DNA of 64,000 nt from Sarea resinae (lineage: Eukaryota): assembly GCA_026026165.1 (NCBI GenBank), contig JAPEUD010000042.1, forward strand, positions 1-64,000, written 5' to 3'. Shown here piece by piece: positions 42,407 to 57,130 of this stretch. Both the position numbers and the translations under genes were made by a program. The stretch's first letter is position 1. Every line of letters begins with the position of its first letter. The notes beneath the pieces are model-generated. The model worked only from the letters and a program-made list of their open reading frames with translations, ran no database searches and was not told the DNA's origin.

Positions 42407-42450
42407 TGAGCATCGTGAGCACCGTGAGCACCGTGAGCATCGTGAGCATC
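42407..42450. repeat. 9-bp tandem repeat (TGAGCAYCG) x~5
   Basis: Read directly from the sequence. Confidence 0.9.
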
Positions 42451-42805
42451 TGCTGATCGACCCGATGTGCGTGTCTGACCCCTGTAGGTGGGTGAGCACC
42501 TTGATCATCACGAATGCCAGCACGAGCTATCTGTTCAGCGATTCTATGCTCGATAGCTCGAAGGTAGCTCAATCACAGCTCTACGATACATCATTCATCA
42601 TCACCGATTCAGTCTTCTTCATCTTGGAATCAAACATGGACTTTTTATTGATTCAGAGCCCGACAAAAACATGATCCAAACTCCTGCCGGATATAACCTC
42701 GACCATCCCAGCTTCAAAGCGACAACATGAGGCTATGATGAGCGCTATTCTGTACTGCAATGGTATTACTAAAGTTGACTCTGCGCCTGATATCCAACTC
42801 ACATC

Positions 42806-43214
42806 TCACAGTAAACCGATCGTGACATCTCCCTTGACCCGCGCGTAAAGTTCAACCTGTTTCCTACATTAACCCTATAACCACATCTCCCTTGACCCTG
42901 GCGTAGAGCTCTACCTCGACTTCGAGATCCAACTCGATCTTGATCTTCAGACTGCTCTCCTTCTCGTCCTTCTTCTTCGGCCGATCCTTGATGCGCGATT
43001 GCCGGACGGGGACGATTTTGGCGTGGCCCTTGTCGGTGTCGATGTGTTCGCCTTGCTGCTGGTAAAGTTCTTGGTTCTGCTTCTCTTGCGAGTCGGATCC
43101 GGCGTCTGATGCAACGTCTGAGCCGGCCTCGGAGACTTCTTGTTCGGCTCTGTGGAAGAGTTAGAAGCGACACCAGCTGAAGCCAAGCACAGTTGAGCCT
43201 TACACTGAGGACAT
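42806..43214 (-). CDS. 98-aa uncharacterised protein with disordered N-terminus and amphipathic beta-type C-terminal motif; two predicted isoforms
   Basis: CACAATG start, 11-nt exon 1, canonical intron 43150-43203 (GTAAGG...TTCTAAC...CAG). Translation MSSVAEQEVSEAGSD...KKKDEKESSLKIKIELDLEVEVELYARVKGDVVIGLM* (stop 42864), or ...GDVTIGLL* (stop 42806) if 42857-42914 is spliced out. Confidence 0.85.
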
Positions 43215-54180: not shown

Positions 54181-57130
54181 CTACGCCTCCCCCTCGATGA
54201 TCTCAGCGCCCCAATCCCTCTGAATGCTCAGCTCAGTCAAGCCCTCCTGATTGCCGAGCACGAGGCCCTTCTCGTTCGCGAGATGCAGCAGGCAGATGAA
54301 ACAGTACGACGTGGAGATGTCGGCCATGGTCTGCTTCGGGTAGACGGCCTGCAGGTTATTCATGACCGAGGTGAATTTCAGCGGGGTCTCCGACGGCGCT
54401 GGCGGAGCGGGTTGTGCTGGTGCCTGTTCTTGTTCTTCGGCTTGGCCGGCGGGCGGTTGTGATGGTGCGGCAGGAGGAGAAGGCTGGAGATCCTGATCGT
54501 GGGGAGATGGGCGAGTTAGTATGGATTTATTCAACGCCGTCCACTCTTAGCACCGCTGAAGACAAAAGGGGGCCAGAGAGCACCATCCAGACCAGACAAG
54601 AGGAACATGTGAGAGGCAAACAAGGGAGGGGGGGTTGAGGGGCAACAAGGAAGGAGATCGAACAAACCTCAAGATCAATGCCGATACCCCGCCACATCTC
54701 CTCCTTCAGCCTCCGTACATCCACCTTCTTCGCCACACGCGCATACTGCATATACTCCGGCCTAGCTCTCCGACTTTGCGTCACAAGCTGCGAACCAAAT
54801 GCCCCGCCACCCTCAGCGTTCGCGTCAATACCTCCACCAGCCAATAAGCCCGCAAGGCCACCTGCTGCAGCGGCAGCAGCAGCCTCACCCTCCGCCTCGG
54901 GGGAGAACGTTTCCCGTGCGTCAGCGAACTCATCGTCGTCATCGTCTGGTAGACCACCGGGGAAGGCCAAGCCATCATCCTGGAAGAAGTTGGCGTCGTA
55001 ATTGCCCTGGCCTGCCTGGTCGTCTGCGGGGTCCGCAGACCCGGCAGGGTCCTCTTTCCGCGCCCAGAAGGCCTCATCCATGTCGCCGTTGGGCATATCC
55101 TCGACGCCACGGTTGGATGACTTGTTGGCGCCGCCGCTGCCGACGCCAACTCGTCTGGACCCTGTGCGGGCTTTGGGTTTCAGGAAGAGATGGAGCAGTT
55201 GGCGGGATGAGAAGTGTTTGTCGTCGGGGAGGAGATTGCGAGTTTTTGACTTCCATTGGGTTTTCGGCAGCGAGATGGAAGAGTTGGATGCGGCGGGTGT
55301 ATAGATGGCTTCGGCCAGACTAGGACTGAGAGGAGAGGAGAAATCGATGGCGAAGGGTTCCTTTTCTTTCCGCCGTGTACTAGTCGGGGTAGAGGACTTT
55401 GTCATGTCTTTAATTCTCCGTATCCGCCAGTGCTCTGGCCCTGCCCAGTTCTTGCGTAGAGCCTGGTCGAAGTAGCTGAGAATATCCTCGTGTCCGCCTA
55501 TGTTCTTGTCTTGGTTGAGCGAAACAATGTAGTCTCCACTCCCGCCCTCGAATCCTCCGACGGCCATTCCATCACCATCCTCTCCATCCGCTCCACCGTC
55601 ATGGTCGAAGACCCCATTGTGAACGCGCATCTGCGGCTCGATAGCCGCATCTCTCGCCCATGCTTCACCGCCTTCACCAAATCCAGTATCTGGGGGAAGG
55701 TCAAAACCTCCTAGCGCTCCGTCATCGTCGTCAAAGCCGGCAGGATTGTCCTCATCGAGGAATATTCCAGATTTATCGCCTAACCCTCCAGAAGTCTCTT
55801 TATCCCTTCTCCACTCCTCGGGAGCTTTCAAGAACGGCAGGTCCAAAGAGCCAGCCGGGTCGCCGAGATCGAAATTTTTCAACGATGGGCAAATATCTTG
55901 TTCATCTAGTCGCGCAAGATCGGGGAAGAACTTTGCTCCAAGAGAAGCTATGTCGACCTCGGCATCTTCTTCCGTCTCTCCGTCGTCGTCCTCTTGTAGT
56001 TCTGGGGTCCCATCTTCTAGCTCCTCGGCTTCCGGCTCTTCCACATTCGCATCGCTCTTTCTCCTTCTGGCATGCTGCTTTGCTGTCGCATCACCGGCAT
56101 CATCGCTACTGTCAAACACTATCCGCCCTCGTCCATCTATGGCCAGATGGTTGAGGAGTAGCCCCTTCGCACCACCTTCGTCAAAGTCCGCCGAGGCCTT
56201 TTTGAAGAGCGGATCTACCGAAAATTCCAGCTCGAATTTCTTCAGTTGTAGTGGCGCAAAAGACGCGGCCAACGTTGCTTCCGAAGACCTCTGTGCCTAA
56301 GAAGAAGTCAATTCCGTCACTGGTGTCATCTGAGAACGATGGAGCTCACCCTTTTCCTAGCCCTCTTCCTCACTCCATCTTCGCCCTCTTCATCCTCTTC
56401 CTCTTCACCGCCACCCTCGCCATCCTCTTCTGCTCCTCTTCGTTTCTTGTTCCCACTATCCGCTAAACCACTCAATAGCTTTCCCGTTTCTGTCGCCACA
56501 CTGTCGACCCGGCTGGTGTAAATTTTCACACATCCATCAAGAGTACAGCTAGCTTTCTGGAAGTTGACTCCATCGCCTTCCTTGAGTAAGGACATGTCGT
56601 GAAAGTAGTCGATGAGAGCGAAATTCCAAGAGTTCGTCGCATTGATTTTCTAAGCAAGTCAGTCGGCAGTCCCTGGCAGACCTTTCCCAGAAAAACGTAC
56701 ATTATCTGTAGCCATCTTCATCCACTCCTCGAAATTCGCCAAGATAGGCACCCGCTTCATCGGAGTCATGGCGCCTCCACCAACCACCATCAAATCTCCA
56801 TCCCCTTCATTTTCTTTGCCTCTTCCACCAAGAGGAGTCTTCGGGCTTCCGCTCACCACGCGGTCAGCCATGACCTTCCTCACCGGAGTTGCGGCAGCTT
56901 TGAGCTGGTTCATCTGAAGGTCATGCAACGCCTGCCGTGACTGGAGCCGGACCGCCTTTTCTCGCCGGTCATCATTCAAGGGTATCCTAGAGAGCCGGTA
57001 AGCATTTTGAAAGTTGCATGCATCAGCAGCTCTCGTACTTGACCGGCGACTGCTTCTGTGGCGTCGCATTTACCAAGCCCTTGGCAGGCGACCTGCCACT
57101 GGGCCGGGGCGGATTGGCGACTCGAGGCAT
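54181..57130 (-). CDS. BRN1: Condensin kleisin subunit (Barren/CAP-H/Cnd2)
   Basis: NFEEWMKMATDN|KINATNSWNFALIDYFHD, NFQKASCTLDGCVKIYTSRVDSV, DPLFKKASADFDEGGAKGLL, WAGPEHW, AKKVDVRRLK, FICLLHLANEKGL. Confidence 0.95.

Follow-up and report, generated by a model that had tools for sequence, protein, structure and literature searches.

A coding intron, probably born by tandem duplication of the last codons of a small gene, in Sarea resinae and other filamentous ascomycetes

Can a segment of DNA be removed from the transcript as an intron and still encode the end of a protein? The question is raised by a small minus-strand gene in a 64,000 nucleotide (nt) stretch of Sarea resinae DNA (contig JAPEUD010000042.1, positions 1 to 64,000; the whole stretch is called the window below). 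In this gene the last 16 codons and the stop codon are present twice in tandem. The upstream copy (copy 1) continues the reading frame of the preceding exon and, together with a short spacer, makes up an intron (intron 2), whereas the downstream copy (copy 2) is the last exon of the spliced mRNA. The reading that we favour, at a probability of about 80%, is that copy 1 and the spacer form a coding intron born by tandem duplication, that both the spliced and the unspliced mRNA are translated, and that selection keeps both copies.

In an ungapped alignment copy 1 (42914-42864) and copy 2 (42856-42806) are identical at 37 of 51 bases. Eight codon differences are synonymous and two are non-synonymous (GTT/ACG, V/T and ATG/CTG, M/L), and the stops, TAG in copy 1 and TGA in copy 2, are in register. 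The alignment and the sequence itself thus bear out the duplicate that an earlier note on this DNA, made from the letters alone, had described, with its coordinates, its codon differences and its matching stops. Counted by the Nei-Gojobori method, the pair has 8.8 synonymous and 3.2 non-synonymous differences, which correspond to proportions of 0.72 (pS) and 0.09 (pN), respectively. Of all other 51-mers in the window, on either strand, copy 2 came closest to copy 1 (37/51); the next best reached 28/51. None of 200,000 trials, in which 14 random substitutions were placed on copy 2, kept the frame and the stop with at most two residue changes. The longest in-register run of identity between the copies is 16 nt, and they have no 31-mer in common. 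Tandem Repeats Finder did not report the pair in the window, because the copies are too diverged and just two in number; a repeat search of the window recovered it as fragments 58 nt apart. Repeat-induced point mutation was ruled out as the source of the divergence by the many transversions and the codon-periodic pattern of the differences.

The earlier note had also named an assembly artefact as a possibility. A search of sequencing runs gave 14 runs, 13 of them with at least part of the stretch, and contigs of X1, X2, X3 and X12 were compared. A Logan contig of X1, which is possibly the source of this DNA and not independent, contains the whole stretch with 0 differences. A 222 nt contig of X12, which is 93% identical, spans both copies without a gap; with its library of unknown type, it does not count as evidence of retention. 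The repeat pair is present in the contigs of both runs, which rules it out as an assembly artefact of this record alone. The X3 contig covers 42918-43111, outside both copies.

X2 is an RNA library, a wood-decay metatranscriptome, available as contigs. Its record 4 (262 nt, depth 307.5, one mismatch) covers 42954-42913 and 42854-42641. After shifting the cut by 2, the joint 42854/42913 is the same as 42856/42915, and the contig skips exactly the 58 nt from 42914 to 42857; the ends are CT..AC on the plus strand, that is GT..AG on the strand of the gene. This is the 58 nt intron, and the junction, that had been predicted from the sequence. The joint falls in the 4 nt AGGT overlap, outside the 16 nt identical run, and the contig carries the variants of copy 2 at every diagnostic position. 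Because the two copies also share no 31-mer, the joint must be a splice; with an identical run of just 16 nt, neither a jump of the assembly (for Logan we take k to be 31) nor a template switch at the place of best homology explains it. The segment 42914-42857 is a real spliceosomal intron, which is removed from RNA. With copy 1 spliced out, translation terminates in copy 2 (...GDVTIGLL); the spliced mRNA of the window gene encodes ...LEVE/VELYARVKGDVTIGLL, the slash marking the splice boundary here and below. Record 10 of X2 (475 nt, depth 123.9) covers 43340-43204 and 43149-42925, and joins 43149 to 43204 with GT..AG ends on the minus strand, where intron 1 of the same gene is removed. Two of the 57 X2 contigs were at least 99% identical to the window, and both were spliced forms.

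The presence of both copies in relatives, a check that had been proposed with the duplicate, was tested by tblastn on metagenome loci. An alignment served as query, and the best 80 of the 157 positive stretches were analysed. With the window these are 81 sequences, 71 with two copies and 10 with one. Collapsing identical regions left 60 distinct sequences, of which 52 have two copies, 49 in the canonical form (this set includes the window, L045 and L025) and three in variant forms (L033, L001/L002 and L072). The eight distinct single-copy sequences have no intron at this site; they end in GLM (L044, L047, L067, L069, L070 and L074) or in GLL (L050 and L064), and one of them (L064) looks like complementary DNA (cDNA). 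The loci were assigned to classes by comparison with 19 named proteins over at least 110 residues including the variable part, an approximate method. Best matches of two-copy loci were in Dothideomycetes (Alternaria, 81%; Ascochyta, 83%), Sordariomycetes (Echria, 70%), Eurotiomycetes (Capronia, 66%) and Lecanoromycetes (Caloplaca, 68%). Since two-copy loci match four classes and the window represents a further one, Sareomycetes, the pair appears to predate the split of several classes. By this approximate assignment the duplication would be old and common to many Pezizomycotina, neither recent nor private to this genome.

Several loci depart from the canonical form. In the closest relatives of the window gene, L001 (1678-1790) and L002 (686-790), copy 2 is missing the first three codons. 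A shift of the donor by 8 nt, to GTATGC with G at +5, leaves a 50 nt intron, a case of intron sliding; both readings are preserved (...VDLYARVKGDVTIGLL spliced, ...VDLYARVKGDVVIGLM retained). L072 has lost AG/GT, and its copy 2 reads IDLFARAKGDVTIGVL, with four residue changes. Copy 2 of L045 has R>H and L>S replacements, and in L025/L026 stop 2 is lost (TGA>TTA), which adds seven residues. L072, L045 and L025/L026 are natural controls, which agree with the evolution of the intron as coding sequence (see below); they are possibly lineages that are losing the spliced form. A further sequence with the same layout was seen in the X1 run itself: record 2 (583 nt, depth 4.4, compared with 331.5 for the main contig) matches 42885-43019 at 84%, and beyond the match it reads ..ITIGLM and a stop, then TGTACAG, then GT. 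Judged by these letters, the two-copy layout would occur once more in this DNA run, in a paralogue or in another organism. The head and the tail of L043 are mutual reverse complements, a palindromic assembly artefact, and L077 has Illumina adapter sequence at both ends; the gene region looks normal in both.

Protein-level constraint was measured as pN/pS over the 49 canonical sequences (43 distinct copies 1 and 45 distinct copies 2), with synonymous sites near saturation. The ratio was 0.085 for copy 1 (pS 0.65, pN 0.056), 0.083 for copy 2 (pS 0.71, pN 0.059) and 0.099 for the 16 codons upstream (pS 0.63, pN 0.063). The numbers of variable sites at the first, second and third codon positions were 5/1/14, 7/3/16 and 8/4/15, respectively. 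Both copies are thus under purifying selection at the protein level, as had been claimed, and the intron evolves as coding sequence, copy 1 being indistinguishable from exon. Unlike copy 1, the adjoining spacer is free to vary. The same pattern was found in the own lineage of the window. Copy 1 of the X12 relative differs from that of the window by five synonymous and no non-synonymous sense changes, and its stop is TAA in place of TAG. The 10 differences listed for this contig fall in copy 1 (six), in the spacer (two, the acceptor still being YAG) and in the upstream exon (two, both synonymous); five further ones near the ends were not itemised.

The intron has to be recognized by the spliceosome, and its splice signals are written into codons. 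In copy 1 of the window GTAGAG is the donor, and TTAATG, the Leu-Met codons, is a candidate branch point of the YTRAY consensus type. All 49 canonical sequences have GAG as the codon before the donor, the donor GAG/GTAGAN and the acceptor YAG/GT. The first Val codon of copy 1 is GTA in 49/49, whereas in copy 2 it is GTT (22), GTC (20), GTG (5) or GTA (2). Where Asp stands at position 2, it is encoded by GAT in copy 1 (21/21) and by GAT (7) or GAC (10) in copy 2. The Leu-Met codons of copy 1 are YTRATG in 49/49, giving a candidate branch point YTRAT 10-45 nt from the acceptor in each sequence (in the window TTAAT, 12 nt). The spacers vary from 5 to 40 nt, cannot be aligned between loci and end in TAG (36) or CAG (13); intron 2 is 56-91 nt long. 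Stop 1 is kept in 49/49 (TAG 27, TAA 13, TGA 9). Stop 2 is TGA in 34 and TAA in 14 sequences, lost once and never TAG, perhaps because a cryptic AG past the true acceptor is avoided. Where the spacer is long, a TAG stop 1 is often followed by TAAC or TAAT, which makes a branch-like TAGTAAY. Read-through of stop 1 from copy 1 into copy 2 was ruled out, the spacers of 5-40 nt often not being multiples of three.

The donor of intron 2 is unusual. It has A at +5 in 49/49 and does not conform to the GTRNGT consensus with G at +5, because GTA-GAN must encode Val-Glu/Asp. Of the 36 introns 1 scored in these genes, 35 have G at +5, by a scoring rule that favoured G at this position. As splicing was observed, A at +5 is to be read as the mark of a weak donor and not as evidence that the segment is no intron. 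The last residue is M in 49/49 copies 1 and L in 49/49 copies 2. The two product differences named for the window therefore fared differently: M/L is universal in the family, V/T is lineage-specific.

Some records are relevant to the unspliced form. Record 5 of X2 (depth 2.1) belongs to another organism and, although it comes from an RNA library, runs unspliced through copy 2, spacer and copy 1. Loose ends of X2 contigs of other organisms, directly after the upstream exon, read ...TIGLM and stop in two rows (4 contigs each) and ...TIGLL and stop in one row (2 contigs). L040 and L041, the starts of which lie within 57 nt and the ends within 7 nt of each other, have no intron 1 at the conserved 11 nt position, and copy 1, spacer and copy 2 are all present. 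These two and L076 may be mRNAs retaining intron 2. L064 is a poly(A)-tailed contig with neither intron. Its single copy is closer to copy 2 than to copy 1 of its relatives (46/51 versus 40/51 for L043), and its 3′ untranslated region (UTR) aligns with theirs. The earlier note had proposed two proteins of 98 residues. The spliced form was seen, a retained mRNA of this organism was not, and the claim of two proteins rests on comparative evidence.

Introns are known to arise by tandem duplication of an exon segment with AGGT, in which the first copy supplies GT as donor and the AG preceding the second serves as acceptor, as described for ATP2A1 (PMC3265369). A paper on potato RdRp cites fission-yeast SPOG_01682 and SOCG_00815 as further cases and notes that proven source sequences of spliceosomal introns are rare (PMC4974935). 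We propose that a tandem duplication in an ancestor of several filamentous ascomycete classes took in the last 16 codons, the stop and a few 3′ bases. As the segment starts with Val (GT.) directly after GAG (Glu), the duplication would have put AG/GT at both repeat boundaries and, in line with the Rogers model, created an intron consisting of copy 1 and the spacer. Two of the features that the model predicts were found. The intron is homologous to the adjoining downstream exon in the window and in 52 of the 60 distinct homologues. AG/GT stands at both repeat boundaries in 49/49, which agrees with the intron gain that had been suggested, and splicing restores the reading frame, giving a product of the same length and nearly identical sequence. 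When the intron is retained, translation would enter copy 1 and end at its stop (...GDVVIGLM), again at the same protein length. The weak GTAGAN donor makes incomplete splicing plausible, and the retained mRNA would be translated often enough for selection to see copy 1. Translation of both mRNAs would explain why the intron is coding-like and has at the same time fixed splice signals (GTA, GAT not GAC, YTR-ATG, YAG).

Several observations weigh against this reading. Two-copy loci may score higher in tblastn, which means that the two-copy fraction is not unbiased, and the loci are not phylogenetically independent. Either polarity would fit the six genomic single-copy sequences ending in GLM, which could be ancestral or could have lost copy 2. 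RNA support for this organism is one run of one study. Retained copy 1 of this organism was not found among the X2 contigs, all four contigs over 42880-42881 differing from the window; the absence limits retention in that sample and does not exclude it, contigs dropping rare variants. The 3′-UTR carries a candidate intron, and a spliced junction there would lie more than 55 nt past stop 1 and a few nt past stop 2. By the general rule of decay that depends on the exon junction complex, such an intron, if spliced, could expose the retained form to decay, which is awkward with selection on copy 1. GTRAGT occurs within 25 nt of stop 2 in 26 of the 49 two-copy sequences and in none of the eight single-copy ones, and the branch and YAG/TAC layout is shared with the window. 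Record 4 of X2 is ungapped through 42641-42854, so this intron is unspliced there. Third positions, finally, are slightly more alike within a locus than between loci: on average 7.41 of 16 are identical, compared with 6.44 of 16 in permuted pairs, a value that none of 5000 permutations reached. This small excess may come from shared codon bias or from occasional gene conversion.

Gene conversion could be given a larger role. If the intron were essentially always spliced, copy 1 would be untranslated and kept coding-like by recurrent conversion from copy 2. Besides the third-position excess, the nearly identical cores at some loci (e.g. L004 and L005) would fit, as would the X12 relative, in whose copy 1 three of the five synonymous differences have the state of copy 2 of the window, and the fact that just the spliced form was assembled for this organism. 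We consider this very unlikely. More than half of the third positions differ within a locus on average, and pS between the copies is 0.767 within and 0.804 between loci. Conversion would homogenise M/L, GTA versus GTY and the stops, all of which stay distinct in 49/49, and the window pair has accumulated its eight synonymous codon differences with no frame damage, an outcome that random placement did not equal. Still less can be said for an RNA joint made by template switching or by an assembly jump between the direct repeats, with copy 2 as mere 3′-UTR. An in-register switch would also drop exactly one repeat period of 58 nt, but the position of the joint, the variants of copy 2 and the lack of a common 31-mer stand against it. 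All 49 canonical sequences, moreover, keep GT..AG, the branch motif and YAG, copy 2 shows the evolution of a coding sequence, and intron 1 is spliced in the same contig set. A reading that goes beyond ours is that ...GLM and ...GLL are functionally distinct isoforms, differing for example in partner binding, stability or targeting, that intron and alternative last coding segment have coexisted since before the split of the classes, and that a deliberately weak donor sets a regulated ratio. It agrees with everything observed. M and L have stayed invariant even though the Leu codon of copy 2 has turned over (TTG, CTG, TTA, CTC) and M is one step from TTG or CTG, and either ending is tolerated in single-copy genes (GLM in six, GLL in two). 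Against it, M and L are chemically similar, the M of copy 1 can be explained by overlap of the YTR-ATG with the branch site, and the protein has no Pfam family and a poor structure model (see below). We regard distinct functions as possible but rather doubtful; the pair may instead be only a frozen, fail-safe arrangement.

The favoured reading, a duplication-born intron that stays coding, has partial parallels. As in the ATP2A1, RdRp and fission-yeast cases, a segment with AGGT was duplicated and splicing restores frame and peptide. Unlike in those cases, the stop lies within the duplicated unit, so that a full-length protein is encoded by the unspliced mRNA too, and the splice signals are written into codons. 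For those cases the intron copy is not reported to stay coding, whereas here it has not decayed and has kept coding constraint (pN/pS 0.085) in many lineages. For SKI7/HBS1 an alternative-splicing event is reported which, like the present one, is kept across many ascomycetes; there it gives two clearly different proteins, here the products are nearly identical and the event stems from an internal duplication (PMC3597508).

Alternative use of duplicated segments is known as well. The alternative last coding exons of KRAS (4A and 4B) arose by exon duplication, and as in the present gene, conserved homologous tandem segments are used one per protein. In KRAS both copies are true exons, each with an acceptor of its own. 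In the present gene copy 1 runs on from the upstream exon without a break and serves as the intron; the alternatives are retention and splicing, and their products are distinguished by one or two residues. The likeness and the differences are the same for U2AF1 exons 3 and Ab, which are reported as mutually exclusive duplicates (PMC5224494).

What is new is the combination of a tandem-duplication intron with alternative use of the duplicated coding segments; each kind is already known. Our literature search, whose cover left out most subscription journals, turned up neither this family nor any coding intron that duplicates a terminal exon, and searching with the peptide motifs gave chance matches only. 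The arrangement, conserved in a gene family that is widespread among fungi, has apparently gone undescribed. Because the intron still codes for a protein end, its origin can be read off in dozens of lineages, and the family thus records the Rogers mechanism in fungi with unusual clarity. An intron with pN/pS equal to that of the neighbouring exons also offers a test system for the coexistence of weak splice sites and coding constraint.

The product of the gene, predicted at 98 residues, belongs to an uncharacterised, Pezizomycotina-wide family. The retained translation had no Pfam match at E≤10, and the Pfam column was empty for all 120 listed homologues. At E≤0.001 there were 511 relatives among 519 database candidates; the best match was 57% identical, and no near-identical database protein was found for the small gene. 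The condensin open reading frame of the window (54527-56296), unlike the small gene, is 99% identical to a named Sarea resinae protein, which points to Sarea resinae or a very close relative (class Sareomycetes) as the source. The named relatives of the small protein are all Pezizomycotina, from the classes Geoglossomycetes, Eurotiomycetes, Lecanoromycetes, Sordariomycetes and Dothideomycetes. In an alignment of 21 sequences (20 homologues and the window) the N-terminal halves are variable and the last ~50 residues nearly invariant, all 21 proteins ending in ...YARVKGD..IGL[MLI]. Among 121 proteins, the 120 listed database homologues and the retained translation of the window, 109 end in GLM, nine in GLL and one in GLI. 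Most database ends thus correspond to the unspliced reading, from which it follows that annotation pipelines usually overlook intron 2, a practical consequence for gene calling. The AlphaFold model from the 21-row alignment had a predicted local distance difference test (pLDDT) score of 57 and no secondary structure, and the N-terminal part appears disordered. Neighbours in the ESM Atlas were unnamed Ascomycota 'hypothetical protein' clusters, with all structure matches below a template modelling (TM) score of 0.5. In three single-copy loci (L067, L069 and L074) the conserved C-terminal domain is preceded by 221-475 codons of open frame; in these lineages the domain may be the end of a much longer protein.

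The features of the gene are collected in Table 1. An exon 1 of 11 nt followed by an intron at the same position was found in most homologue loci. The retained reading is listed as P0001, a translation of 94 residues from 43148; with exon 1 added, the spliced and the retained form alike have 98 codons.

Table 1. Features of the small gene, in window coordinates
Feature	Coordinates	Strand	Remarks
Exon 1	43204..43214	minus	ATG at 43214-43212; 11 nt encoding M S S and two bases of a Val codon
Intron 1	43150..43203	minus	54 nt, GTAAGG..CTAAC..CACAG; removed in RNA contig X2 record 10
Exon 2	42915..43149	minus	235 nt; N-terminal part variable, acidic/polar, then conserved IVPV.QSRIKDRP...SSLKIKIELDLEVE
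Copy 1	42864..42914	minus	VELYARVKGDVVIGLM and TAG; continues the frame of exon 2; makes up the first 51 nt of intron 2
Spacer GAAACAG	42857..42863	minus	7 nt; ends in CAG, the acceptor of intron 2
Intron 2 (copy 1 and spacer)	42857..42914	minus	58 nt; skipped exactly by RNA contig X2 record 4
Exon 3 (copy 2)	42806..42856	minus	VELYARVKGDVTIGLL and TGA; C-terminus of the spliced mRNA
3′-UTR	42641..42805	minus	AATAAA at 42649-42644; RNA contig X2 record 4 ends at 42641, just past it, which places the mRNA 3′ end at ~42641
Candidate 3′-UTR intron	42755..42802	minus	48 nt, GTGAGT..TAGTAAT..TTGCAG; starts 3 nt after the stop of copy 2

Approximately 200 nt downstream of the 3′ end of the gene, at 42407-42450, there is a 9 nt tandem repeat (TGAGCATCG) of 4.9 units with 94% matches.

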